The notes: generated from the letters alone by a model not told the origin. Shown: positions 24,360 to 64,000, numbered from the stretch's first letter. The stretch is DNA of 64,000 nt from an uncultured Synergistia bacterium (GCA_964431735.1 CAYSLJ010000009.1:590-64589), one strand, 5' to 3'. Program-made: numbers and translations.

Positions 24360-26084
24360 CTAAAATTTTGCTTTCAATCCCAGAGTCAATTCATAATCCT
24401 TTGTATCTGGCTCTATAACACCAATTCTTCCAACTCTGCTGAGACCTTTTATATATTCTCCATAGAGGAAAAAATCATCTCCAATTTTATGATCTATATA
24501 CATGGAATAAATATTATAATCACTCAGTTCATTTGATGAATGCATATAATTTACTCTGAAGAGTGAATTTTCCGTCCAGTAAATATCCCATTCAATAGAA
24601 TAATTCCACTGAGACAGGTCAAGGGGACTGTAATATAAAGGACTTTCAAAGGTATGATGCAATCCCGTATGACTTATACCTGCCGTTATCCATGTATTTT
24701 TTCTGTTATCCCATAACCTGTAAAAGGCAGCTATTTCACTGTACGTTCCATTATTGCCGTCAGAATAATCGTAATCAGAAACATGGGCAAGTAAACTGCA
24801 TTTCTCCGTAAGATTAAGACCTGTATAATAATCCATGCCATTATAAGAAATATTTTCTTTCATAGCCTCTACTGTTTCCAGAACAAAATCCTTTCTATGC
24901 CTTATACCTGCTTCCAGTATATCATTTTTAAAAGCAAACTCACCATAGTAAGTACTGCCCTGAGTTCCTCCACTGTAACCTCCTCCTGCAGAAAAATTTT
25001 CCGTAATATGCTGTGTAACGTCAAGTTGACCTTTATTATATATACCTGTATAGGCATCACTTTTAATTTTATATCTGTTAGCTGAGAGAAGAATTTCTGT
25101 TCCTGTAGTCATAACAGGATAGAAAAGACCTGCATAATAATTTATGTAATCCTGATTATTAATGCTTCCCTGACTGTATTCTCCTCCTGTGTATATACCT
25201 GATATATCATCTTCAAGAATATTTAACATTTCTCTACCATAATTCCTGCCTGAAGAGATTTTCGTTAATTGATTGTAATAGGCAGAATAAAAATAAGGAG
25301 TTCTTGAAATATTATAATTAAGCTCTGAGAGTCTTGCCTGATTTAAAGAGTTTTCATTTTCTTCCGAAGGGTTTTCTCTGTATATTTCTTCATATAATTC
25401 TATGGCTTCTTTATATTTATATGTATTTAAATATATAAAAGCAATTCTTTCATGGGAACATTTTTCTCTTATATCCTGTCTTTCCAGTATATTATAAGCT
25501 TTTTTATAGGATCCTGTAATCATATAAAGATCGAGAAGGCGGAGCAATTTATCCTGATTATCAGGTTCAAATTCTAAAAGCTTTTCCGTAAGGGCTGTTT
25601 CTTCTTTAAAGGATTTATTATTTTTATAAATATCCAGTAATTTATTTATTATTTCTTTATTATCACCATAGGTTTTTAATGTATTCAGACATTCTTCTGT
25701 AGCATAGGCATAGGAACCTGTAGCATTGTAAATATCTATAACAAGTGTTCTTATATGCACATCTTCAGGTTTTACTTCAAGATACCTTTTATATAATAAA
25801 ACTGCATAGGAATAATTTCTCATTTCTATCATCATATCGGCAAAAGCCAGTAACACTTCAGTATTTTTCGGTTCATCTTTAAGTAATGTCTGATATATAC
25901 CTATAGCAGAGTCATAATGTTTATTGGTTCTGAGCACAGACGCATCATAAAGAAAATCTTCAGTCTTTTTTATCTCCTGTTCCGGTATAACTTCTGTATC
26001 AGGAGCGGCAGTTTCTTGTCCGTAGAGGATATTAATATTTAAAAACATTATAAAAAGTATTATTATGATCATTTTTTTATACAT
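24360..26084 (-). CDS. PelB-like outer-membrane protein (signal peptide, TPR repeats, C-terminal beta-barrel)
   Basis: Signal-like N-terminus. TPR-like residues about 40-250. The aromatic/Gly-rich alternating C-terminal half ends in ..LGLKAKF (OMP terminal Phe). It is much shorter than Pseudomonas PelB. Confidence 0.6.
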   Translation of the reverse strand: MYKKMIIIILFIMFLNINILYGQETAAPDTEVIPEQEIKKTEDFLYDASVLRTNKHYDSAIGIYQTLLKDEPKNTEVLLAFADMMIEMRNYSYAVLLYKRYLEVKPEDVHIRTLVIDIYNATGSYAYATEECLNTLKTYGDNKEIINKLLDIYKNNKSFKEETALTEKLLEFEPDNQDKLLRLLDLYMITGSYKKAYNILERQDIREKCSHERIAFIYLNTYKYKEAIELYEEIYRENPSEENENSLNQARLSELNYNISRTPYFYSAYYNQLTKISSGRNYGREMLNILEDDISGIYTGGEYSQGSINNQDYINYYAGLFYPVMTTGTEILLSANRYKIKSDAYTGIYNKGQLDVTQHITENFSAGGGYSGGTQGSTYYGEFAFKNDILEAGIRHRKDFVLETVEAMKENISYNGMDYYTGLNLTEKCSLLAHVSDYDYSDGNNGTYSEIAAFYRLWDNRKNTWITAGISHTGLHHTFESPLYYSPLDLSQWNYSIEWDIYWTENSLFRVNYMHSSNELSDYNIYSMYIDHKIGDDFFLYGEYIKGLSRVGRIGVIEPDTKDYELTLGLKAKF

Positions 26085-29000
26085 GCCTCCAGAATATAAT
26101 TTTGAGGCTTACCTTTTAATTCATATTTAAATGAAAGTAATCCTTCCCTGTCTGTCTTTACATCGAAATTAATATCTCCAAGGGTAACATTATAAAGGGT
26201 ATCTCTTTTTAAACTGGCAATTTCCATATAACCGGCACCAATACCATCCTGAATTACTGCTTTTATTTTATGTTCATCACAGTCCCAGAGGCCAATATAG
26301 TGAGATGCCGATTTCAGATAAACTTTACTCTGTATCTTATCTGTAAGATAAATTTTATGTTCCTCTTTCTCATCTAAAAATATGTAAAGAGAATTATTAT
26401 AATAATTAAATCCAAGAATATTTTCTGACCTTTCTAAATCAGGCCTGAGAGAAGTATTATCAAATCTCACAGTTCTTAAATAACCCATATTCCTGATAAT
26501 AAAACCTCCATCGCCTGTTTTTCCCGTCTGAGCATAGTAAAAATCTTTTATAATACGGGAGTACTGGCTTGCAAAGAGAAGGGCCATATGCTTTGAAAGG
26601 CAGTATTCATAAAGCTTCTGAAGAGCTTCAAGACTTTCCCTGTAAATACCACTGTAAAAATGATAATAAATATTTACAGCTCCTATCCTCAGAGGCTTAT
26701 CTGTATTTTCTATATGGTCTATCAATTTTATCATACCATTATAATTTCCTGTCCAGGATTTTGTATATATATAATCATTACTGCCTGATGTATGAACCTG
26801 CAGTCCCTTCCCCTGTTTTATAAGGACAGGACATAAACTGCTGTATGAATCATAATCTTTATCATAAATAGGATCTCCTCCATTTATATTGGCAAGTCCC
26901 AGTTTTTCTGTTTCTAAGAGAAACTCTTCTGTAGGATTACACATGCCGGGCCAGAAGATAATTTTATTCACCTTTCCGGGAGGCACAAGATTCTGATTGA
27001 TTAAAGCCGTAGAATATAGTATTTCTGTTTCAGGAGAAGCTTTCTCATAGCTTATTTTATAATTGCCTGTATCTCCTGACATATCTATCTTTACATCTCC
27101 ACTGACTAAATTAAATGGATGGCTATGGCTATGACTGGCAACTTCAATATTATCCAGGGCAAAGATGTGACGGGCCATATCCATAGCAGGATTATAATAT
27201 TTTACACCATATCTTATGATTTCATCTGTTATTACAGAAGAACTTACAGGGAGATTATATTTTTTGAAAATCTCTTCTGTAACTATTTCACCTGCATATC
27301 TTCCCGGTTCATCAGAAGATACATTCATAAGGCCGTCAGCATCTACATGACTGTAAAAAATCCTCTGACCGTTCAGAGTCGTATAATCTAATCTGGGCAT
27401 TTCTTCCAGAGCAAGAGCATCCTGAAAAAAATCAAAAGGATTTACAACCCATCTACCGCTTTCCTGATCCAGAATAGCCTGTGCATCATATTGAAGATTT
27501 AGTAATTCTCCATAATTTTCAGGAGAAGCCTGAGTGTTTTGACTGTAGAAGAAATCACCGGAGATTATTCCTCCCCACGGGCCTGTAACTACAGGAGAAA
27601 TATTTCCATTTTCAGAATTGTATATATTAAGAAGAATTTTATTCCCTTCTCTGATAGATCTCAGAGGATTCACACCGGCATTATCATCTATATTTAAAGG
27701 ACTTTCAAAACCAAAAAGACCATCTTTTATATAAACTATTTTTCCAGGATGATAAAAGGATTTATATACATCAGGACGGCCCCTGTTAAATATATTTCCA
27801 CTGTATCCATAGGCACTTACATTCATTTCATTGATTCTGTGAGTTACAAGACTGTTTTTCAGAGCCTTTAAATTTTCTAATATATAAAAATAATTTTCAT
27901 CACATTCCAGTCCCAGCATTGAAAAGACATCTTTTACATGGGAAGAAAAGGTGAATTTTTCAGAATCATAAAAAGCACCGTAATTATCCAGAATAATTAC
28001 TTTTTTACCATTATTTATCTGTTTTAAAAGCCACAGATTATAATTATCTGCACCTTTCATATCAGTGTCTGTAAACCAGGTCATAACTGCCATATAATCC
28101 TTCATTGTTTCATCATCAGGTCTATCTGTTTCAATATCCACATAATCACAGACAAGGCCGAGATGATTTAAAATAATATCACAGCAGTCACAGGCAGAAG
28201 ATGTTTCAAAATCTATAACTTCACTGCTTTTATAAAGGACAAGCACTTTTCTCGGAAGAGGTAAAGAACATGGCAGACGTTCTTTTTCTATCTTTTTATT
28301 CATAAGAGCTCTCTCTAACTCTTTTTCTTTATCTACAGTAATATTATAAACTTCTGGAGGAATAAATTCATATTCTCTGAGTGCTTCTTCCAGGAATTTA
28401 TCCAGTTTAAGTATAAAACTGATTTCCCAGTTATCCTGTCTCTGTCTGTAAATATATCCCTGAAGTGCCATGCCTCCATAAGGTGTTACTACAACTACAT
28501 CACTGTTGCTTCCTTTTCTGTCTTTTCTGCTCAGAGTGAGAAAACTTTTATTTTCAGGCAGACGGGATTTAAAGAGAAAATAATTTTTAAAATCTTCCTT
28601 TTTAGAAAGCATTTCTTTATTAATACATTCTTCTGATATATAATCACAGTTTATTATATCAGATCTGTCTGTCCACTGCTGTTTCATTACAAGGCCGAAA
28701 GGATAGAAAAAATTATTGATTTCTATTTCACTTAAATATCTTACAATATAATGTGAGTCCTTTTTTATTTTCTCCGTATAGGCACCGAAATCTCCGAGAA
28801 TTATAACCTTCTTCCCGGCAGAAACCTGATCTCCAAGCCACTCACAGTATTTTGCTGCATTATACATTTCTGAAGTGCCATACCAGGAAATTATGCATCC
28901 ATATTCTTTCATAACAGAACTGTCAGGTATACCTTTATCTATATCATAATAATCCAGTTCATAACCAAGTTTAAAGAGTTTAACAGAAGCCAGTTTTTTT

Positions 29001-29818
29001 ATAAAATTTTCCCTGTCAGACTGTTTTTCAGAACTTTTATAAAGAGCCAGCAATTTTTTAGAAGTAAATTTCTCAGGGTTTTTATATGTGAGAACATCGT
29101 AGAGAAAATCCTTCCTTTTTAAATGCCATATTATATTTCCTGACGACTCATCTATAGAATAAATATATCCTATCTGAGCCATTCCCCCGTAAGGAGTTCT
29201 TACAACAGCACAATTTTCCCTCCCAGGCTGACTTTTAAGACCTGTGGTAAGATAGCTTTTATTATTTTTATTTATGGATTCAAATAATGCAAAATATTCA
29301 GGAAAAGGTGAAGGTATAGAATTTACTACAGAGGGATCTCTGTAAAGAACTTCTACATCATCTTTATTGATTTTATCACTGCCTTTAAATTCAAGTCCCA
29401 GTAAAAAAAAGAAATCATTCAGGTCTTCGTTACTAAGCCAGTTAATACCATCATCGGAATGGGCTCCAAAATTTCCAAAAATTACAATTTTCCTGCCTTC
29501 TTTTATCTGTTTTGAAAGCCAGGTGATATATTCTTTCGAGTGAGGATGTATGGCAGTAAAATAAAAGGTTACAACACCTTCATAGTCTTTCATTTCATCA
29601 GATGACGGCAGAACAGAAAGAGCATCTTTATAGTCTACTTCATAGCCCAGGGCTTTTAATTCTCCTTCAAGATGATATAAAACAGGATTATCTGAAGCTG
29701 TGGCATTTTCATTTGATTTATAAAGGGCAAGTATTTTTTTATTAGCTGCTATGGTGAAGGTGTGGAAAATAAGAAGAAAAAAAATCGTAAATATAAAAAT
29801 TTTATATATCAAAGGCAT
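26069..29818 (-). CDS. PelA-like protein: three tandem about 230-aa alpha/beta modules + CE4-like deacetylase + C-terminal beta-domain
   Basis: Three paralogous modules (KILALYKSNE.., KLLALYKSSE.., KVLVLYKSSE..). FYSHVDADG (nt 27335-27349) and ASHSHSHPF (nt 27119-27133) resemble CE4 metal and catalytic motifs. Signal peptide present. Confidence 0.65.
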   Translation of the reverse strand: MPLIYKIFIFTIFFLLIFHTFTIAANKKILALYKSNENATASDNPVLYHLEGELKALGYEVDYKDALSVLPSSDEMKDYEGVVTFYFTAIHPHSKEYITWLSKQIKEGRKIVIFGNFGAHSDDGINWLSNEDLNDFFFLLGLEFKGSDKINKDDVEVLYRDPSVVNSIPSPFPEYFALFESINKNNKSYLTTGLKSQPGRENCAVVRTPYGGMAQIGYIYSIDESSGNIIWHLKRKDFLYDVLTYKNPEKFTSKKLLALYKSSEKQSDRENFIKKLASVKLFKLGYELDYYDIDKGIPDSSVMKEYGCIISWYGTSEMYNAAKYCEWLGDQVSAGKKVIILGDFGAYTEKIKKDSHYIVRYLSEIEINNFFYPFGLVMKQQWTDRSDIINCDYISEECINKEMLSKKEDFKNYFLFKSRLPENKSFLTLSRKDRKGSNSDVVVVTPYGGMALQGYIYRQRQDNWEISFILKLDKFLEEALREYEFIPPEVYNITVDKEKELERALMNKKIEKERLPCSLPLPRKVLVLYKSSEVIDFETSSACDCCDIILNHLGLVCDYVDIETDRPDDETMKDYMAVMTWFTDTDMKGADNYNLWLLKQINNGKKVIILDNYGAFYDSEKFTFSSHVKDVFSMLGLECDENYFYILENLKALKNSLVTHRINEMNVSAYGYSGNIFNRGRPDVYKSFYHPGKIVYIKDGLFGFESPLNIDDNAGVNPLRSIREGNKILLNIYNSENGNISPVVTGPWGGIISGDFFYSQNTQASPENYGELLNLQYDAQAILDQESGRWVVNPFDFFQDALALEEMPRLDYTTLNGQRIFYSHVDADGLMNVSSDEPGRYAGEIVTEEIFKKYNLPVSSSVITDEIIRYGVKYYNPAMDMARHIFALDNIEVASHSHSHPFNLVSGDVKIDMSGDTGNYKISYEKASPETEILYSTALINQNLVPPGKVNKIIFWPGMCNPTEEFLLETEKLGLANINGGDPIYDKDYDSYSSLCPVLIKQGKGLQVHTSGSNDYIYTKSWTGNYNGMIKLIDHIENTDKPLRIGAVNIYYHFYSGIYRESLEALQKLYEYCLSKHMALLFASQYSRIIKDFYYAQTGKTGDGGFIIRNMGYLRTVRFDNTSLRPDLERSENILGFNYYNNSLYIFLDEKEEHKIYLTDKIQSKVYLKSASHYIGLWDCDEHKIKAVIQDGIGAGYMEIASLKRDTLYNVTLGDINFDVKTDREGLLSFKYELKGKPQNYILEACIKK

Positions 29819-31818
29819 TACTCCTTTATAAAAATTTCCTTTATTTCACAGGGATTACTCTGATTGTTATTATAATCAACAGATGTAACAAATATTTTAT
29901 AACTATGAGAAATAGAAAGATTATCAATAAACATTTCACATATATGAGAAGGAATTATAAAAGGGAGTCTTATTTTCTGTTCTGAAGGGAAACAGTATAA
30001 CCTGTAACAGGAAAGATCGTCACAGATGACAGGGTTCCAGATAACCTGAAGTTTTTTGTTTTCTTTTTTATATTCTACATAGAGACCTTCAGGAGAAGGA
30101 GGAGGTGTACAGTCTTTCGGACATAGTGCAACCGGATAGGCTACAGGTCCCTCTTGATCTGTTTCCGATAAAGGAGAAACAGAAAAATAATAAATCTTTC
30201 CATTTACAAGATTATCTATCACAGCTGAATTACCTGTTACAGTCTTTAAAAAATTCAGATTACCGGGACTGTCACCTGAATAAATATTAGATCTGTTACA
30301 GTTATTCTCCCATGTAAGATAAACAGAACTTTCTCTTCCCTCTCCCTCTAAAGAATAAATAATTCCCGGATAAATTCCATCAATTGTATGCAAAACTGTT
30401 TTACTGTAAGGAGTCTGAAGGGAAAAATTTTTCCCGATAAGTTTTACATAAATATAATAATCTGTATCTTTATCAAGACCGAAAGAAGAACAGATAATTT
30501 CACTGCCATTTAAAATAACATTTTCTTCATAATCAATTTCAATTTTTTGAAGAAGAGATATTTCACTGGAAATACTATCTTTTTCTCCATATCTTAAATC
30601 TATAAAGTAATCTCTTCCCGGAAGCAGATTGTTTTGCCCGTCTATACCGATATAAACAAGAAACCTCCCTTTTTCACTTTCTTCTGCTCTTACTTTTTTG
30701 ATTGAAGGTATTTTATCATCTTCTGTAAAATATTTCTCTACAGGAGGGAAAATCTTCTGTAAATCAGGAGTAGAAATATAATATGAATAATTCTCATCTC
30801 CCAGGAGATTTATACCATTATAAAATATATTATAAAAATCTTTTTGATCCGGATTGAGATAGTCGAGAACAAATAGATGAAAACCGTCTTTTTTCTTCAT
30901 ATTCGGAATAATATAATTCTTTAATACATTGAAATTTTCCGCTCCATAAGGGCTTTCAAGACCTTTATTTCTGTACCAGTCCCATTCCGAGGCAAAACTC
31001 TCAAACATAATACCATCGATAGAAGGTCTGAATATATGGGCATATTTTTCTAAAAGAAAAAAGCCTCTGTTTCCTATAAGATATTTATCAGGAAAATCTT
31101 CTCTGATTTTTTTCACAAGAAAGGCCATATTCTCCTGAGTCCATCCGTAATTTCCCCAGGGTGAAGCAGTATCAAGAGTATCAAGGAAAAAACCGTCTAC
31201 TCCGAAATCATCTGAAAGTTTTTTCATCTTTTTCTCTATCATATCCTGCCAGAGAGAGTCGCCTGGGTTAACAAAATAACTTCCCCACTTGCCATTTTCA
31301 TCCGGGAGACAGTCATGACCCGGAAAAAATTCAGGCATTCCACCGGGCAGATAGTTAAAAAAACCTTTTTCATTGAAAACATAACTTACATGATCGACAT
31401 ATCTGGAAGGATAATCATTTTTAAGATAATGCAATTCTTTATCATAAAATACAGGGCCTTCTTTCTTATTTTCAATATTACCTGCCCCCTGTGGCACCAT
31501 CTCATCTTCACCTATTGATACATAGGCTATTACCATTATGTCATCATCTGTTCCTTCAATTCCATCACGGCCATTCTTAATTTTTTTAATCATTTCAGGA
31601 GTAATATTATCCAGGTCATTTCCTGGATGAAGAATTACAAGATCGAAATCAAAAACTCTGGAAATTGTTTCACAATCCCATTGTCCGTAATATACAAGAT
31701 ATTTTAGAGGATATTTTTTATTATATTTCAAAGAAGTAGCCCCTGCTTTTTCAATGGAGGATATACTAAGAAAAAAGGTAAAAAAAAATAAAATCAGAAA
31801 AATTTTGCCTGTTATCAT
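29818..31818 (-). CDS. secreted TIM-barrel glycoside hydrolase (GH114/GH166, PelA hydrolase-like) with C-terminal FN3-like domains
   Basis: YYGQWD, VIAYVSIGE and GVDGFFLDTLD blocks are typical of endo-alpha-1,4-(N-acetyl)galactosaminidase-like barrels. TAATG overlap with the next gene. Confidence 0.7.
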   Translation of the reverse strand: MITGKIFLILFFFTFFLSISSIEKAGATSLKYNKKYPLKYLVYYGQWDCETISRVFDFDLVILHPGNDLDNITPEMIKKIKNGRDGIEGTDDDIMVIAYVSIGEDEMVPQGAGNIENKKEGPVFYDKELHYLKNDYPSRYVDHVSYVFNEKGFFNYLPGGMPEFFPGHDCLPDENGKWGSYFVNPGDSLWQDMIEKKMKKLSDDFGVDGFFLDTLDTASPWGNYGWTQENMAFLVKKIREDFPDKYLIGNRGFFLLEKYAHIFRPSIDGIMFESFASEWDWYRNKGLESPYGAENFNVLKNYIIPNMKKKDGFHLFVLDYLNPDQKDFYNIFYNGINLLGDENYSYYISTPDLQKIFPPVEKYFTEDDKIPSIKKVRAEESEKGRFLVYIGIDGQNNLLPGRDYFIDLRYGEKDSISSEISLLQKIEIDYEENVILNGSEIICSSFGLDKDTDYYIYVKLIGKNFSLQTPYSKTVLHTIDGIYPGIIYSLEGEGRESSVYLTWENNCNRSNIYSGDSPGNLNFLKTVTGNSAVIDNLVNGKIYYFSVSPLSETDQEGPVAYPVALCPKDCTPPPSPEGLYVEYKKENKKLQVIWNPVICDDLSCYRLYCFPSEQKIRLPFIIPSHICEMFIDNLSISHSYKIFVTSVDYNNNQSNPCEIKEIFIKE

Positions 31819-49738: not shown

Positions 49739-51010
49739 TCACTTACTCATAGAAAGAGCTTCTCTTGTTATGGTTTTCAGGAAGTCCAGATTATTTTTAG
49801 TCTTTTTAATGCGATCAATAAGAAGTTCAGTCATCTCAGTAGCATCAAAAACTGCAAAAGCTCTTCTGAGAAGCCATATTTTCTGAAGGTCACTTTCAGA
49901 AAGCAGTAGTTCTTCATGTCTGGTACCAGATTTTTTAAGATCAATGGCAGGGAAAATTCTTTTTTCTGCAAGTTTCCTGGACAGTTCCAGTTCCATATTA
50001 CCGGTGCCCTTAAATTCTTCATATATGACATCATCCATTTTACTTCCTGTTTCTATAAGAGCAGTGGCAATTATAGTAAGACTTCCACCTTCTTCTATAT
50101 TTCTTGCAGCACCGAAAAATGCCTTTGGTTTAATCAAAGCCATAGTATCTATACCTCCAGAAAGTGTTCTTCCACTTGTAGGAAGGGCAAGATTATAAGC
50201 TCTTGCAAGTCTTGTAAGACTGTCCAGTAAAATAACAACATCCCTTTTGTGTTCCACCAGTCTCTTTGCCTTTTCCAGAATAAGTTCTGCTACAATGGTA
50301 TGATTTTCCGGAGGTTCATCAAAGGTAGAACTTACCACTTCACCTTTTATAGATCTCTTCATATCCGTTACTTCTTCAGGTCTTTCACCTATAAGAACAG
50401 CTATTATCGAGACATCAGGATAATTGGTTGATATACCATGAGCAATCTTTTTGAGTAGTATAGTTTTACCTGCTTTCGGAGGGGCTACTATTAAAGCTCT
50501 CTGCCCTCTTCCGAGAGGAGACATAAAATCTATTAACCTGGCTTCCATTTCATCATAGACTGTTTCCAGAGTAAATCTATTATTCGGATATATGGGAGTT
50601 AATTTATCAAAGGGAATCCTGGCCCGTGCATTATCAGCACTGTCTTCATTCACAGTAATGACTTTCAGCAATCCATAATATCTTTCGCCGTTCTTCGGTG
50701 GCCTTATCTGGCCGAGTACCGTATCACCTGTGCAGAGATCAAATCGTTTAATCTGTGATTGAGAAACATAAATATCATCCGAACCGGGAAGATAGCTGGA
50801 ACGCCTTAAAAAACCATACCCTTCAGGCAATATATCAAGTACTCCTCCGGCAAATATCAAACCTTTCTGCTGTGCCTCATTTTCCAGAATCCTGTGTATA
50901 AGGCTATTTTTCTTAAGATTATGATAACCTGTAAGACTTTTTTCCTTTGCTATTTCAAGCAAATCAGTTCTACTCATATTTTCGAGTTCTTCAAATTCCA
51001 TAAAAATCAC
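49739..51010 (-). CDS. rho: transcription termination factor Rho
   Basis: N-terminal Rho_N (LLEIAKEK), GYGFLR RNA-binding, Walker [19 protein letters not shown], and the ending EL..R..AI. Confidence 0.95.
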
Positions 51011-57965: not shown

Positions 57966-58117
57966 GAGTCAATTTTTAATTATAAACTTTTTGCAGGAAA
58001 AGATCAAATCCTCCAGGCACTGTAGAAACTCCATATGTTCTGTGATATAATAAATATATAGATCTTTCTCATAGAAAGGATTGCCGGGATTATTTATAGA
58101 ACAGGAGATAGATAATA

Positions 58118-59017
58118 ATGAAATCCGACGATATAAAGATTGCCCATGCCAATTATGATATAGTGTTCAAATCTCTCACAGGGTTATTTAAAGACCAGAC
58201 TCTGGAATTCTACGGTCTTAAAACTGCTCCTATCGTAAGGGCAGAACCGGCAGAACTCCCTCAAATACAGATAGACGAAAGACGTATGGATTTTGTCTTT
58301 TATCTGTCAGATGATTCATTTATGCACATTGAGTTTCAAACAACAGTAAAAGAGGATGACCTGTTGAGATTTAAACTATATGATACACTTCTTTATGAAC
58401 AGAAAAGAAAACCTGTTAGAACTGCCGTTATTTATGGAGCAGGTATAAACAGCGCTCCCGTATTTCTTGATCACGGCTCTATAAAATATATTGTAGAACC
58501 TGTCTTTATGGGGAATTATGACGGCGATAAAACATATAATGAACTGGTGGAAAAAATTAATTCACGAATTACATTGACCATACAGGATAAATTAAATCTC
58601 ATATTTCTTCCTCTTATGAGAAATTCTGTAGATAAATCTCAAAGGGCTATAGAAGCTATAGAATTAGCTCAGAAAGTGGAAGATAAAAATGAACAACTCT
58701 TTTTAATAGGATGTCTGGTTGGTATATCAGACAAATTTATTGATGAAGAATATGTAAGGAAAATGCTGGAGGTGTTACGTATGACAAGGGTTATGCAGGC
58801 ATTATATAAAGAATTTAAAGAAGAAGGAATAAAAGAAGGAATAGAAAAAGGAATAGAAAAAGGAATAGAAAAAGGAATAGAAAAAGGAATAGAAAAAAAT
58901 AGATTGGAAATGGCACATAAGATGCTGGAAGATAACATTGACATCAATCTGATCGTAAAATATACAGGCCTTATGATTGAGGAAATTAAAGAATTATTGA
59001 AAGATGACAGGGATTAA
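58118..59017 (+). CDS. Rpn/YhgA-like recombination-promoting nuclease (PD-(D/E)XK transposase-like, TIGR01784-type)
   Basis: N-terminal YDIVFKSL.. and MDFVF..HIEFQ nuclease-core pattern. The C-terminal GIEK x5 tetrapeptide repeat tail is typical of this family. Confidence 0.75.
   Translation: MKSDDIKIAHANYDIVFKSLTGLFKDQTLEFYGLKTAPIVRAEPAELPQIQIDERRMDFVFYLSDDSFMHIEFQTTVKEDDLLRFKLYDTLLYEQKRKPVRTAVIYGAGINSAPVFLDHGSIKYIVEPVFMGNYDGDKTYNELVEKINSRITLTIQDKLNLIFLPLMRNSVDKSQRAIEAIELAQKVEDKNEQLFLIGCLVGISDKFIDEEYVRKMLEVLRMTRVMQALYKEFKEEGIKEGIEKGIEKGIEKGIEKGIEKNRLEMAHKMLEDNIDINLIVKYTGLMIEEIKELLKDDRD
58825..58896 (+). repeat. 12-nt coding tandem repeat (GGAATAGAAAAA x5 plus one degenerate unit)
   Basis: Encodes GIKE-(GIEK)5. 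Copy 2 has only a degenerate, unexpanded version. Confidence 0.9.
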
Positions 59018-59114
59018 TGGGATGGAAAGGATTACCGGGATTTTTTTGTCTGCATCACAGATGACACGGATTATTGGATTACACGGATTTATTTTTCCCG
59101 GAATTAAATTATGT

Positions 59115-59222
59115 TGTCAGAACTCGGATATATCGGATTAACGGATGAGTCGGATACTTCTCCCTTACTCTATCTTATCAATCCGATATATCCGATAAAT
59201 CCGACGCATCCGAGTTCTGACA
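59115..59222. repeat. 108-bp palindrome with four phased CGGAT motifs per arm
   Basis: TGTCAGAACTCGGAT (59115-59129) is the reverse complement of ATCCGAGTTCTGACA (59208-59222). CGGAT at 59125, 59134, 59142 and 59151; ATCCG at 59181, 59190, 59199 and 59208. Confidence 0.85.
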
Positions 59223-59462
59223 ATGGAAGCTACTGCCGGATGGAGAAATAGATATCCTATCCATTTCTATTATCCATCCAAACAGCAGACGAGATTTTTT
59301 TCTATATGTTCAATGTTTAAATAATTTATATCCCCTTAATATATAAGAGTCAAAATTTTGCATTTTTCCAAAAAAATTTTAATTTTTTTATTTTTTATCA
59401 GATCTATTCAGGAAATAAAACTCTGATAACTGTCCTGAAGCAAAGGACAGAAAGAGTCTTCT

Positions 59463-60517
59463 CACTGTAGAAACTCCATATATTCTGTGATATAATAAAT
59501 ATATAGATCTTTCTCATAGAAAGGATTGCCGGGATTATTTATAGAACAGGAGATAGATAATAATGAAATCCGATGATATAAAGATTGCCCATGCCAATTA
59601 TGATATAGTATTTAAATCTCTCACAGGCCTGTTTAAAGACCAGACTCTGGAATTCTAGGGTCTTAAAACTGCTCCTATTGTACGGGCAGAACCGGCAGAA
59701 CTGCCTCAGATACAGATAGATGAAAGACGTATGGATTTTGTATTTTACCTTTCTGATGATTCATTTATGCACCTTGAATTCCAGACAACAGTGAAAGAAG
59801 ATGACCTCTTAAGATTCAAGCTCTATGATACACTTCTTTACGAACAGAAAAGAAAACCTGTCAGGACTGCCGTTATTTATGGAGCAGGTATAAACAGTGC
59901 TCCCATATTCCTGGATCATGGTTCTATAAAATATATTGTAGAACCGGTTTTTATGGGTAATTATGACGGTGATAAAACATATAATGAACTGGTGGAAAAA
60001 ATTAATGCAGGACTTACATTAACCATACAGGATAAATTAAATCTCATATTTCTTCCTCTTATGAGAAATTCTGTAGAGAAATCTCAAAGAGCTATAGAGG
60101 CTATAGAATTGGCACAAAAAGTGGAAGATAAAAACGAACAGATATTTTTAATAGGCTGTCTTGTAGGCATATCAGATAAATTCATTGATGAAGAATATGT
60201 AAAAAAAATGCTGGAGGTGTTACGTATGACAAGAGTTATGCAGGCTTTATATAAAGAATTTAAACAGGAAGGAATAGAAGAAGGCAAAAAAGAAGGCATG
60301 GAAAAAGGTATGGAAAAAGGGAAAATGGAAACGGCACAAAAGATGCTGGAAGATAAGGTTGATATAAATTTAATCGTAAAATATACAGGACTTATGATAG
60401 AAGAAATTAAAGAATTGATAAAAAACGACAGGGATTAACGGGATGGATCACGGATTAAAAGGATTACACGGATGACACGGATTATTGGTTACACTGATTT
60501 ATTTTTCCCGGAATTAA
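59463..60517 (+). repeat. Rpn cassette copy 2 (direct repeat unit)
   Basis: See copy 1. Same upstream leader and same downstream CGGAT-rich tail. Confidence 0.85.
59563..60438 (+). pseudogene. second Rpn/YhgA-like copy inactivated by a premature stop
   Basis: Nearly identical to 58118-59017, but codon 32 is TAG (59656-59658) where copy 1 has TAC. The track ORF restarts at internal Met 59731. Confidence 0.8.
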
Positions 60518-60726
60518 TCTCAATCCATAAATTTTCTTCAATCCCACAGGATAAACTTATCCCCCAATCCATATGGCAGAATCCTTTTCCATCTTTCGAG
60601 CCTGTTTAAGCCTACCAGACGAAAAAGGGGATATATATTTGTCCGGCAGAGCCGGAGCAGGATTACAGCCTGGACAGGTTGTTGATCTGGAATAGAGTCC
60701 TTAAACCATATTCTTCTGACATATAA

Positions 60727-60852
60727 TTAACCTGTGCTGACAGGACGGAAACCCAGGTTGTTGTTGCGGTTATCAGGCGTGTTGTTGTTGCGGTTCGCCG
60801 ACCGGCAGTTATCGGGATTATTGTTCCAGCTGCCGCCGCGTTTGACACGGTT
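60727..60852 (-). repeat. DGR template repeat (TR)
   Basis: 126 bp collinear with 62916-63041 (offset 2189). On the minus strand it is rich in AAC codons (..[32 protein letters not shown]..). Confidence 0.93.
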
Positions 60853-60875
60853 AGCGCCTGTAACGACTGTACCCC

Positions 60876-61895
60876 TTAAAGTATGCAAATATTAAGTCTG
60901 TCACTGAAAAAATTTCTCCTGCCATGTAATGTGCTTGAGTGAATAAGATAACCTGTTCTGCTTGAAATTGAACGGGAAAGGAATAATTCATCAATATTGC
61001 CTTTCATATATTCTTTTTCCATAGCTCTAATTTTTCTCTTAAATTTAGCCCATTTTTTACCTTCCAATCTTATCAGGGAAGGAAAAATAGAAAATCCGAG
61101 GAAAGGAATTCCCTGGCTTACAGGTGCTAAAATCAAACTTTCTTCTTTCAGGGAAAGAGAGAGAGTTTTCGAAAGAAAATCTCTAATAAGATAGATTTGT
61201 TCTTTTATTAATGTTTTTTCCTCTCCAAAGATAATAAAATCGTCCATATATCTTATATAACCTTTAATAGAAAGTTTATTTTTAACAAAATGATCCAGCT
61301 GACCGAGATAATAATTGGCAAAATATTGACTTGTAAGATTTCCAATAGGAAGCCCCTTACCCGGCTTATTTCCCTCAACAGGGTGCTCGATAATTAAATC
61401 CAGAAGGGTTAAGAGTTTTTTATCTTTAAATTTCTTTCTGAGAAGATTTTTTAATATTCTGTGATCAATACTTTCAAAGAATTTTCTTATATCTCCTTTA
61501 AAAAAATAATTATTATGCCTGGTAAAATATTGGGTTTTCTTTATCGCTCTGTGGGTTCCTTTATCTTTACGGCAGGCATAGGTGTCATAGATAAAACTTT
61601 TCTCAAAAAATGGTTCTATTATATTGCATATGGCATGGTGTACCACACGATCCCGAAAGTGAGCGGCACAGATTTTTCTTTTTTTCGGTTCAAAAACATA
61701 GAAAATATGGTAAGGCATAAGATTATAAGTGCCTGAAATAAGTTCTTCCTGTAACTCAAAGAGTTCTGTTTCCAGATGAAAATAGAAATCAGCCACAGTA
61801 TGTTTATGTTTTTTTCCAAGACCTGCCTTACGGGAGGCAAGTAAAAGATTTCCAAAAGAAACTATTTGTTCAAATAAATATCCATAACGTTTCAC
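60876..61895 (-). CDS. DGR reverse transcriptase
   Basis: [13 protein letters not shown] (61326-61346) is the DGR RT signature. YMDD at 61239-61250. 339 aa and compact. Confidence 0.92.
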
Positions 61896-62242
61896 AGCGC
61901 AACTTCCTTCTGTTTAATCCATCCTCCAAGCATTTTTCCAACTTCATTAATAGATTTCCCTGCATATTCATAGGCATTGAGATTAATAAATTTCTGATTA
62001 TAGGACATACGGAGAAGAACTCTGAGTTTTTCAAGTCTCAAATTGGCTTTTTTCAAAATCTCCATTTTATTTTTTGAATATCTCGCTTCTATTAAATCTT
62101 CCACAATATCAAGGGCTAAATTCTCTATGCGATTTACAAAGATAAAACGAACCTTTCTGGGAAATTTTTCAGTTTTTAAGAACAGCCACTCTATAAACTC
62201 CACCCATTTTATAAATATGGGAAGGTCTTTATTACTATCCAT
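61892..62242 (-). CDS. avd: DGR accessory variability determinant (four-helix-bundle Avd)
   Basis: 116 aa and helical. The pattern ..FPRKVRFIFVNRIENLALDIVEDLIEA.. is as in Avd / 23S rRNA-IVS proteins. 4-nt overlap with the RT start. Confidence 0.8.
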   Translation of the reverse strand: MDSNKDLPIFIKWVEFIEWLFLKTEKFPRKVRFIFVNRIENLALDIVEDLIEARYSKNKMEILKKANLRLEKLRVLLRMSYNQKFINLNAYEYAGKSINEVGKMLGGWIKQKEVAL

Positions 62243-62735
62243 CGATTTTCCCCTCTACTCTCTCTTTATTATCAGCTAAAATATTCAACAGGTCTTTACC
62301 GTATTTTTCCACCCTTGCCCTGCCGAAACCTTCTATATTGGAAAGGGCGTTCAGACTCTGAGGTCTGAATTTAATCATTGTGGCAAGCTGTTTGTTTGTA
62401 CAGATAATATAGTGAGAAATTCCGTCAGATTTGGCCCTTTCAGCCCGCCAGCTGCGCAGGGAATTAAATAAGGGCATATCTTCATCAGAAAGTATTTCTC
62501 TCCAGGCTTCTTCTTTCTGCTTCCTGGTTTCTACCGGAGAGTCAAGTGATTTCATACGGTAGATTATTATTATAACAAGATATGGTATTTCATCTTTAAT
62601 AAAAAAATGATCCTTTAAAGATAAAATCTCTTTATCTTTGATAAAATCCCTGACAGGCATATCATCAAAGGAATCTATGGCTGAATTAAATTTTAATGTA
62701 ATAATTTTGCTTAACATATTAAATCTCCTTCCCAA
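62235..62735 (-). CDS. HRDC-domain protein (DGR accessory)
   Basis: C-terminal LFNSLRSWRAERAKSDGISHYIICTNKQLATMIKFRPQSLNALSNIEGFGRARVEKYGKDLL is an HRDC pattern. 8-nt overlap with avd. Confidence 0.8.
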   Translation of the reverse strand: MGRRFNMLSKIITLKFNSAIDSFDDMPVRDFIKDKEILSLKDHFFIKDEIPYLVIIIIYRMKSLDSPVETRKQKEEAWREILSDEDMPLFNSLRSWRAERAKSDGISHYIICTNKQLATMIKFRPQSLNALSNIEGFGRARVEKYGKDLLNILADNKERVEGKIDG

Positions 62736-62740
62736 AAATC

Positions 62741-62829
62741 CCCCGCCCGGACATTCAGACCTCCATTACGGGGGAGCGGCTTAACGCCGCTGTTCCCCCT
62801 TCATTACGGTCTGAATGTCTCCCCCCGGG
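62741..62829. other. GC-rich nested stem-loop between VR and the HRDC gene
   Basis: GGACATTCAGACC (62749-62761) pairs with GGTCTGAATGTC (62808-62819). Inner GGGGGAGCGGC-TTAA-CGCCGCTGTTCCCCC. Confidence 0.6.
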
Positions 62830-62847
62830 ACAATTTGATTACAATTT

Positions 62848-62890
62848 CTCTTTTACCCTTTTTGAAAAAATTCGCAAAAGGGTAAAAGAG
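62848..62890. other. perfect 15-bp inverted repeat 26 nt downstream of the VR end
   Basis: CTCTTTTACCCTTTT (62848-62862) pairs with AAAAGGGTAAAAGAG (62876-62890), with a 13-nt loop. Confidence 0.7.
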
Positions 62891-62908
62891 TAAAAAAATC
62901 AAGAGTAA

Positions 62909-64000
62909 CTAATTCCTGACAGGACGGAAACCCAGGAAGTAGTTGCGGCCATCAGGCGTGATGCCGATGCGGAACGCCGACCGGCAGCCATCGGGACCAA
63001 AGTTCCAGCTGCCGCCGCGAATGACACGGTAAGCGCCCGAAGCAGGGCCTGTAGGATTCGTGCCGGGACTTATACCATAATAAGCAGGTGGATTTATCCC
63101 ACTATCACTGAACCAATCACTGCACCATTCCCACACATTTCCGCTCATATCATAAAGGCCAAAGCTATTAGGAAGTTTCTGACCTACAATATGATGATTC
63201 TCATTACCGGGGCCACCATATCCATCTCCGGCATTATTCCAGTACCACGCATAATTCCCGATATTCGGCGGATCAGGCGGATAAGGATCACCCCAGTAAT
63301 ATTCTGCCGCATTACCGCCACGGCAGGCATATTCCCACTCTGCCTCTGTAGGAAGTCTATAACCATTAAGAGTCCTCCATACAGAAGGATCATTTCCTCT
63401 ATTATTTATCGGCCCGTAACAGGAAGTCAATCCCTGCTGAGTACTCAACCAGTTGCAATATGCTACCGCTCCATACCAGGATACATACACTACAGGACGA
63501 TTTTCATAACCAGAAATTACAGAGAACGTTCCAGCACCGGGCCCGCCTGTTATTCCCTGATACTGGTCTGCAACTATATTGATCCACTCTACTCCACCTT
63601 CTGTCTGATTACCTTCAGAATTTAAAAATAATACATAATTCGAATTAGTTACTTCATATTTAAACATATTAAAAGAACTTACTGTAATCGCGTGAACTGG
63701 TTCTTCAGATGCAGAAACAGTACTCCCCATATTAAAAGTCCCTCCGGCAATCGCCACCATCGGAGGCCCTACTACAGGTGTAGAAGTAGCCATCACGGTA
63801 GGAGTCACAGTAGGAGTCGCAGTCGCCGTAGCAGTCGGCTCCACCAGTGGCCTCACATTTATACTCTTCACTCCGGCAGTCACCTCATCATTCACTGCTC
63901 CGAAAGGACTTCCCGGACTTCCGTTATATTCGCTCTCACTCCTCCAGAACTCCACACGGCACGCACCCTGAGGAACTCCTGTAAAAGTAAAATTGCCTCC
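62909..64000 (-). CDS. DGR target protein, FGE-sulfatase (SUMF1)/C-type-lectin-fold domain; N-terminus beyond window
   Basis: The frame is open to base 64000. Thr/Pro linker, then EPVHAITVSSFNMFKYEVTN, VSWYGAVAYCNW, RLPTEAEWEYACRGG, GLYDMSGNVWEW and RVIRGGSW. Confidence 0.9.
   Translation of the reverse strand, partial: GGNFTFTGVPQGACRVEFWRSESEYNGSPGSPFGAVNDEVTAGVKSINVRPLVEPTATATATPTVTPTVMATSTPVVGPPMVAIAGGTFNMGSTVSASEEPVHAITVSSFNMFKYEVTNSNYVLFLNSEGNQTEGGVEWINIVADQYQGITGGPGAGTFSVISGYENRPVVYVSWYGAVAYCNWLSTQQGLTSCYGPINNRGNDPSVWRTLNGYRLPTEAEWEYACRGGNAAEYYWGDPYPPDPPNIGNYAWYWNNAGDGYGGPGNENHHIVGQKLPNSFGLYDMSGNVWEWCSDWFSDSGINPPAYYGISPGTNPTGPASGAYRVIRGGSWNFGPDGCRSAFRIGITPDGRNYFLGFRPVRN
62916..63041 (-). 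repeat. DGR variable repeat (VR) at the 3' end of the target gene
   Basis: Differs from the TR at 22 positions, all of them TR adenines on the coding strand. Encodes ..GGSWNFGPDGCRSAFRIGITPDGRNYFLGFRPVRN*. Confidence 0.93.

Follow-up and report, generated by a model that had tools for sequence, protein, structure and literature searches.

A stretch of 64,000 nucleotides (nt) from an uncultured Synergistia bacterium (GCA_964431735.1, CAYSLJ010000009.1:590-64589; the whole stretch is referred to as the window, and all positions are counted from its first letter) carries near its end a locus that we read as a chromosomal diversity-generating retroelement (DGR) of the type that has both an HRDC-domain protein and the accessory variability determinant Avd. 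The element looks competent and its variable repeat (VR) appears to have been rewritten recently in comparison with neutral drift; we put the probability of this reading at roughly 90%. A preliminary description of the same DNA had already identified the locus as a DGR, and this identification stands: adenine-only differences between a template repeat (TR) and the VR, a DGR-like reverse transcriptase (RT), Avd, a target protein resembling TvpA and a structured RNA following the TR are all present and intact. The entire cassette is on the minus strand, with the 5' to 3' order target gene with VR, inverted repeat, HRDC gene, avd, RT gene, TR and structured RNA, and all four open reading frames (ORFs) of the cassette are intact.

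The VR (62916-63041, minus strand) consists of the last 42 codons of the target gene, in frame, and its coordinates had been given correctly. The TR, in contrast, had been placed at 60727-60852 (offset 2189), which is out of register with the VR: at these positions 92 of 126 nucleotides mismatch, and the mismatches are of every kind, because the TR coordinates had slipped by 10 bases; the observation itself was not false. The window has exactly two copies of the shared 21-mer CTGACAGGACGGAAACCCAGG, one starting at 60737 and one at 62916, which sets the true offset between TR and VR at 2179. With the TR at 60737-60862 (minus strand, beginning 13 nt past the RT stop codon) the alignment of the two 126-nt copies is gapless, as claimed, and contains the 22 mismatches that had been counted, each of them a T in the TR copy on the top strand, that is, an A on the minus (coding) strand. 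Pairwise alignment in the corrected register also reproduces the tally by template base: 22 of the 36 template adenines are changed, while mismatches at non-adenine positions, named in the preliminary description as an observation that would speak against a DGR, were looked for and amount to 0 of 90. The chance of 22 mismatches all falling on the 36 A sites among 126 positions is P = 1.9e-15; with this overall divergence, some 16 mismatches should have fallen on non-A positions. As there is no non-A difference between TR and VR, the VR is likely to have been rewritten recently. An independent repeat finder returned the pair 60737-60858/62916-63037; the final 4 nt of the 126-nt repeat (60859-60862), which contain two further A-site mismatches, are its least certain part.

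The VR belongs to the reading frame of the target; the TR does not encode protein and is rich in AAC. The peptides that had been quoted for both copies agree with our translations. Nineteen codons of the TR contain adenine, 12 of these are AAC, and the A sites are distributed over codon positions 1, 2 and 3 as 18, 16 and 2, concentrated in AAC/AAT codons. Variation at 19 codons corresponds to ~4e19 possible protein variants. No second VR was found on either strand of the 64-kb window when the non-A positions of the TR were required to match, also not with sub-windows of 45 nt. The last 21 nt of the VR (62916-62936, minus strand; CCTGGGTTTCCGTCCTGTCAG) are identical to the TR copy, as reported earlier, and have no substitution despite holding one adenine; the two copies part at the base directly after this segment (GAATTAG in the VR, CACAGG in the TR). 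By its position and identity the segment would correspond to the initiation of mutagenic homing (IMH) sequence and its TR counterpart IMH*, the boundary of mutagenesis; some DGRs with identical IMH and IMH* have been reported (PMC5758913).

The RT gene (60876-61895, minus strand) encodes a protein of 339 amino acids (aa) with an RVT_1 domain and a YMDD motif. The DGR motif IGNLTSQ that had been noticed in this protein is indeed there, as LPIGNLTSQ, and it satisfies the DGR motif-4 pattern (I/L/V)GxxxSQ. The best match in the PDB is the RT of the Bordetella phage, bRT (8ub7 and sister entries; E 1.4e-57, 199 bits, residues 2-316), compared with 3.8e-21 (79 bits) for the highest-scoring group II intron RT and ~1e-12 for retron-type RTs. 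Residues of bRT that contact template, dNTP or metal are R74, I181, G182, Q187, D138, D215 and D216 (Handa et al., bioRxiv 10.1101/2023.10.23.563531); in the PDB alignment their counterparts are R73, I184, G185, Q190, D135, D218 and D219, and all seven are invariant across an alignment of 39 homologues. The family is populous, as the protein database holds thousands of homologues with 50-63% identity. Judged by its motif, its best PDB relative and the A-only TR/VR pairs of its relatives, the protein appears to belong to the DGR type of RTs.

Two accessory genes lie between target gene and RT gene. The gene for Avd (61892-62242, minus strand; 116 aa) is recognised by the NCBIfam model NF033474 (DivGenRetAVD, 113.4 bits at a cut-off of 80) and by Pfam bAvd (PF22296, E 3.8e-20). 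At either end avd shares a few bases with its neighbours, the HRDC gene and the RT gene, an arrangement expected of an operon. The HRDC gene (62235-62735, minus strand; Pfam PF00570, E 9.9e-19) is located between target gene and avd and encodes 166 aa if translation starts at the TTG at 62735, or 160 aa from the ATG at 62717. An HRDC gene is kept at the equivalent position in the ten nearest relatives (L002, L054-L059, L070, L089 and L122; L numbers designate the loci of our comparison). The HRDC protein presumably binds nucleic acid during homing.

Of the target gene, the window contains the 3' part (62909-64000, minus strand, with the stop codon TAG at 62909-62911). There is no stop codon up to base 64000, hence the ORF runs past the end of the window and the N-terminus of the protein lies outside. 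In the visible part, a Pro/Thr-rich linker connects the end of a beta-sandwich domain to an FGE-sulfatase domain, which has the C-type-lectin fold (Pfam PF03781, E 6.6e-60). The closest solved structure is TvpA (2y3c), the DGR variable protein of Treponema denticola, and the alignment of the two proteins passes through the VR, onto the C-terminal variable region of TvpA. Full-length homologues of the target have ~600 aa, with two CarboxypepD_reg domains, a Big_2 domain and the FGE domain; in a protein search with the target, no match exceeded 83% identity. The diversified protein is probably a secreted or surface-exposed ligand-binding protein.

Directly 3' of the TR is a structured non-coding RNA of ~165 nt (60574-60736, minus strand), which is indicated by a weak Rfam match, by its fold and by covariation and is the probable counterpart of the spacer (Sp) RNA of the Bordetella phage. 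The sole Rfam match is RT-14 (RF02921; 60581-60736, minus strand, full model 1-144; E 0.027). The RNA shares with RT-14 an outer stem around a hairpin, a small hairpin, an A-rich linker and a long stem, in RT-14 enclosing UAGUAG...GAA, but as it reaches only 36.2 bits at a gathering score of 48.1 we regard it as a divergent sibling and not as a formal member. Among 20 related loci none had an Rfam RT motif at gathering score, and 8 of these had none even at E <= 5; the RNA was therefore modelled de novo. The 170 nt after the TR are visibly alike across the relatives, and RNAalifold, run on a plain MAFFT alignment of 13 loci, returned two stems with compensatory change in 22 of 25 pairs. A four-helix structure was then written out and tested on the plain (unfitted) 13-locus alignment: the share of paired cells is 83% and drops to 31-51% once the partners are shifted by 1-3 columns, and 32 of 37 pairs have compensatory changes on both sides, values that none of 500 shuffles reaches. 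A covariance model derived from the 13-locus alignment has a single match in the window (60574-60745, 117 bits, E 2.6e-29) and matches 58 of 100 sources, namely the window and 57 other loci; in the model-fitted alignment pairing amounts to 91.6%. Of the matches that were compared with TR coordinates, those of full length begin between a few and ~30 nt from the detected TR end, on the RT strand, and this linkage holds both for loci with the TR after the RT (L055, L078) and for loci with the TR before it (L105, L102). The window sequence itself can form all helices and folds better than all of its 200 shuffles (z = -3.3).

The helices of the RNA are, on the minus strand, P1 (60735-60729/60680-60674), which encloses the stem-loop P2 (60713-60705/60698-60690; its loop is UUAAGG in the window and UACG or CACG in relatives), P3 (60656-60651/60647-60642) and the long P4 (60630-60618/60593-60583), which encloses UGGUAGG...CGAAA. 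A conserved GUCCAGG (60675-60669) links P1/P2 to P3, and P3 is followed by an A-rich tract (60642-60631; ACAAA in the four-helix structure). The RNA of the Bordetella phage ribonucleoprotein (RNP) has a similar succession: an Avd-binding stem-loop of ~9 bp just downstream of the TR, often UNCG-capped, then a single-stranded stretch and then a long RT-binding stem-loop; according to the paper describing them, elements of this kind are found in 207 of 278 Avd-containing DGRs. By position and shape, P2 would be the counterpart of the Avd-binding stem-loop, P3 with the A-rich tract that of the stop element and the single-stranded thumb ring, and P4 that of the RT-binding element. The Rfam RT-n motifs were found adjoining RT genes. 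One of them, RT-10, corresponds to the spacer between TR and RT in the Bordetella phage; for the others a role in DGRs is speculation only in the source paper (Weinberg et al., NAR 2017, PMC5737381). In the window element a structured RNA that flanks the TR is present and conserved, with a predicted role in the recruitment of RT and Avd and in priming. If the mapping is correct, the covariance model ties the post-TR RNAs of many HRDC/Avd and Avd-only DGRs, and through its layout Rfam RT-14 as well, to the solved elements of the Bordetella phage, and the shared RNA would support a priming RNP that is conserved across phyla.

Downstream of the VR, starting 22 nt past it, there is an AT-rich inverted repeat (62845-62893, minus strand) whose 18-nt arms, 94% complementary, flank a loop of 13 nt; it is absent after the TR. 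Its 5' arm is covered by the tandem octamers TTTTTTTAC TCTTTTAC CCTTTTGC (62898-62874, minus strand), which extend 5 nt further upstream, and the region 62720-62940 folds with a z-score of -6.6. Inverted repeat and octamers together are a candidate for the target-side recognition element. An inverted repeat downstream of the IMH is not strictly defining for a DGR, as only 34% of DGRs have one (PMC5758913).

Short tandem repeats after the VR are frequent among the relatives of this element. They are strand-specific, have a period of ~8 nt and are of two types, YCTTTTAC/CCCTTTAC/CTTTTGC or TTCTGA/TTCTGG; the repeat of the window is of the first type. Of 77 non-redundant related loci, 36 have at least two copies of one of these motifs within 70 nt after the VR, and 1 has them after the TR. 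The first type is found 10-70 nt after the VR in L002, L055, L058, L063, L064, L067, L069, L073, L077, L078, L080, L086, L094, L103, L112, L116, L118, L123, L130 and L132, and the second type in L071, L084, L087, L097, L104, L105, L107, L108, L113-L115, L117, L128 and L016-L026. Short-period self-similarity is higher after the VR than after the TR, in shuffled sequence or in in-gene controls (Mann-Whitney P ~1e-16, which is optimistic because the loci are related). In the DGR papers that we searched, a limited search, such post-VR tandem repeats were not found described. We therefore raise, as a tentative and rather doubtful generalisation, that many DGRs of this RT lineage mark their target by tandem repeats 10-60 nt after the VR and not, or not only, by a GC-rich cruciform like that of the Bordetella phage. 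If this were true, the repeats, acting as a protein-binding or replication-pausing element, could explain how VR and TR are told apart in spite of identical IMH and IMH*. The recurring octamers are a concrete candidate for the poorly understood target recognition in retrohoming.

RNA-guided targeting, with the post-TR RNA pairing to DNA past the VR, was considered and dropped: complementary stretches are slightly longer in cognate pairs (7.3 nt) than in non-cognate ones (6.6 nt), but the matches are at no consistent position of the RNA, and shared genome composition suffices to account for them. A second inverted repeat, G+C-rich and imperfect, separates the target gene from the HRDC gene (62750-62819, minus strand; 31-nt arms, 77% complementary). 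It contains an internal GC hairpin followed by GGGCGGGGGAUUUUUGGG and has no match in Rfam; it may be a terminator or attenuator that splits expression of the target from that of the cassette, or a second cruciform.

The steps that would precede protein variation we infer from the paradigm of the Bordetella phage (PMC6182149, PMC5703328, PMC3240598, bioRxiv 10.1101/2023.10.23.563531). Transcription of the minus strand would run through the RT gene, the TR and the structured RNA downstream of it. A complex of RT and Avd would bind this RNA 3' of the TR via P2, P3 with the A-rich tract, and P4, and cDNA synthesis would be primed in cis within the post-TR RNA and start near the 3' end of the TR. 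The TR would be copied faithfully except opposite adenines, where wrong nucleotides enter, and the mutagenised cDNA would replace the VR at the C-terminus of the target. Homing would be directed by the shared 21-nt segment and by the features that are missing after the TR: GAATTAG, the tandem octamers and the inverted repeat. Their outcome can be seen in the sequence itself: 19 codons are variable, and they lie on the ligand-binding face of the C-type-lectin-fold domain.

Several points weigh against the reading of a competent and recently rewritten DGR. Present-day activity is something we only infer: exact look-up of the RT found the sequence in a single other assembly, a Logan contig of SRR10812145 with 2358 nt, and this contig ends before the VR. 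Exact look-ups of the HRDC protein, with either of the possible starts, returned no match, and the GTDB representatives do not include the source genome. Of the target, the window has the 3' part. The inverted repeat differs from that of Bordetella in being AT-rich and separated from the VR by 22 nt; the Bordetella repeat is GC-rich and directly adjacent, 4 bp from the IMH. Because IMH and IMH* are identical over 21 nt, protection of the TR from self-homing has to rest on the downstream sequence, the role of which is putative. P2, P3 and P4 were matched to the Bordetella RNA elements through their position and shape, not through sequence homology, and Rfam RT-10, the Sp motif of Bordetella, gave no match to the post-TR RNA. 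Finally, the substitutions from TR to VR are 13 A>T, 9 A>G and no A>C; the absence of A>C among 22 has a probability of 1e-4 under equal rates and of ~0.03 at the rate of the relatives. A>C is the rarest class in the relatives too (14%; 573 A>G, 537 A>T and 186 A>C), and since they share the same bias we do not treat its absence as a feature of this element.

The alternative that survives best is that of a fossil DGR, in which all parts are still recognisable but retrohoming has been lost, for example with expression or a host factor, and the VR is frozen. It is consistent with the exact RT and HRDC look-ups, from which no direct variation at the locus was obtained, and with the position of the cassette: it adjoins a duplicated Rpn-like gene with an in-frame stop in one copy, so that the neighbourhood has seen rearrangement and decay. 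Yet drift after inactivation would touch all bases, whereas none of the 90 non-A positions differs; moreover, the four ORFs are intact, the catalytic residues are conserved and every cis RNA helix is intact in the window sequence. We consider a fossil improbable and prefer the competent, recently rewritten DGR.

Two further explanations have a negligible probability. Plain segmental duplication of the 3' end of a gene, followed by strand-biased mutation and with an unrelated RT nearby, would account for the bare existence of a direct repeat and nothing more, and is refuted by the mismatch spectrum, in which a single base of a single copy is affected (P 1.9e-15), as well as being at odds with a changed copy in frame beside an unchanged copy that is AAC-rich and non-coding, and with the co-occurrence of Avd, a DGR-type RT and a TR-linked RNA as in dozens of relatives. 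Equally remote is an RT of the group II intron, retron or defence (DRT/Abi) type with an incidental repeat. Weak matches to the NCBIfam models for group II RT/maturase (TIGR04416, 135.9 bits at a cut-off of 300), retron St85 RT and Drt proteins, and the labels 'retron-type' or 'group II intron' RT on some database homologues, could be read in this way; all these matches, including those to Drt2-5 and AbiA, are far under the curated cut-offs, the best structural relative is a DGR RT, and with 339 aa the protein was judged too short for the maturase/endonuclease extension of group II enzymes. An Rfam search of 58000-64000 (E <= 1) found neither a group II intron RNA nor a retron non-coding RNA. 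Membership in either class was accordingly rejected, for group II introns on the TIGR04416 score and the lack of an intron RNA in that region, and for retrons on the RT model (51.9 bits at a cut-off of 235) and the lack of any matching retron RNA family. The locus is thus best described as a DGR.

For comparison, 132 related loci were fetched through RT homology, and their repeats were identified with a detector of A-only mismatches: 84 of 133 loci have clean A-only TR/VR pairs. The closest loci by RT (44-56% identity) are L002 (from a Methanosarcina metagenome-assembled genome, MAG), L054 and L055 (Acidobacteria/Blastocatellia), L056, L058 (Desulfobulbaceae) and L059. The nearest relatives span several phyla and have the cassette target-HRDC-avd-RT-TR; the order HRDC-avd-RT is common to all ten HRDC relatives named above, and in those with a detected repeat pair the TR is right after the RT, with the VR 2.0-2.5 kb upstream in every case except L070. 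HRDC-containing DGRs have been described as 'Architecture C' (Wu, Gingery et al., NAR 2018, PMC5758913): an HRDC domain is present in 4% of DGRs and about half of these also have avd, and the order avd-RT-TR has been described there too. DGR hypermutation across the global microbiome has been surveyed (PMC8144416). As relatives and Architecture C share the HRDC cassette, the element is a further case of a described variety: for the field, it is one more example and no new principle; for annotation, it is a complete hypervariation cassette in an uncultured bacterium.

Among known systems, Architecture C, a clade to which the TvpA DGR of Treponema denticola belongs, is close to the window element: it likewise has HRDC and avd together in a single-strand cassette and an FGE-type target with C-type-lectin fold and a C-terminal VR. 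The Treponema loci among those fetched differ in having the TR upstream of the RT instead of after it, and their RTs are only 35-36% identical; the MAG labels of the closest relatives are Acidobacteria/Blastocatellia, Desulfobulbaceae, Deltaproteobacteria and Methanosarcina, not spirochaetes. The DGR of Bordetella phage BPP-1 (mtd-avd-TR-brt; cryo-electron microscopy structures 8ub7-8ube), the prototype studied by experiment, shares the adenine-specific differences between TR and VR, Avd, RT homology over the full length with the same active-site and template-contact residues, an IMH-like 3' segment and an inverted repeat after the VR. It differs in gene order: the order target-HRDC-avd-RT-TR-RNA of the window means that the RNA is not between TR and RT. 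Also, the window element has an additional HRDC gene, a target of the FGE type rather than the Mtd type and identical IMH and IMH*, and it is chromosomal and not phage-borne; the differences in composition and distance of the inverted repeat and the lack of a match to RT-10 have been mentioned above.

Two of the related loci have peculiarities of their own. L002 (NZ_DAOOUJ010000002.1, Methanosarcina sp. MAG) has a matching gene order, with 52% identity in the RT, 49% in Avd and 41% in HRDC; its presence in a contig assigned to an archaeon implies either cross-domain transfer or a binning error. In L055 (Blastocatellia MAG), positions 1-774 contain the 3' end of a 23S rRNA gene, overlapping a group I intron match, and a 5S gene, ~2 kb upstream of the VR.

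Target genes of this kind also occur elsewhere. When JGI metagenomes were queried with the exact 21-mer of the IMH, five contigs from a related organism were identified that carry homologous targets of ~600 aa with 77% nucleotide identity: Ga0302243_1009105 (L214), Ga0302240_1018560 (L216), Ga0307358_101041 (L217), Ga0302240_1001220 (L218) and Ga0302249_1003868 (L219). The encoded proteins have two CarboxypepD_reg domains, Big_2 and FGE, and the genes end in the same 21-nt IMH followed by GAATTAGTT; downstream there is a PD-(D/E)XK gene and an Rpn-like gene. In the contig stretches examined, neither an RT nor a TR nor a post-TR RNA is present beside the five target genes, which is why these contigs say nothing direct about the locus in the window. 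The two alleles of these targets differ from each other at 27% of VR positions, versus 7% upstream and 1% downstream. Either a DGR located elsewhere acts on these genes from a distance, or their VRs are orphaned.

The genes surrounding the element in the window include rho (49739-51010), a histidine kinase, a Ser/Thr kinase, large TPR proteins and a glycosyltransferase, and no tRNA genes. As these neighbours are cellular genes, a phage or plasmid origin was rejected. By Rho, the closest genome is a MAG labelled 'Bacillota bacterium UR.bin48' with 91% identity, and all others have at most 62%.

The DGR adjoins two paralogues of the Rpn family (recombination-promoting nuclease/putative transposase; TIGR01784, below cut-off), which are arranged in tandem on the plus strand (58118-59017 and 59565-60438). 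Their 5' regions are 94% identical, and the second copy has an in-frame TAG at ~59657 where the first has TAC: it is a pseudogene or recoded. Inside the first ORF, six copies of the 12-nt tandem repeat GGAATAGAAAAA (58821-58896) encode (GIEK)n; the second copy has a shorter, degenerate version of this repeat (60266-60305). Each of the two genes is followed by a cluster of short repeats of the ACGGAT(T) type (e.g. CACGGATGACACGGATTATTGG; 59000-59240 and 60430-60520), the first of which contains long inverted repeats (59098-59239). Repeats of the same type are also found just past the VR of the homologous targets in L214, L217, L218 and L219, and the clusters may be the ends of a mobile unit. 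Further away, Pfam gives no match at E <= 1e-5 for two large adjacent ORFs on the minus strand (26069-29818, 1249 aa, and 29818-31818, 666 aa), which stand among genes for TPR proteins, histidine kinases and glycosyltransferases.

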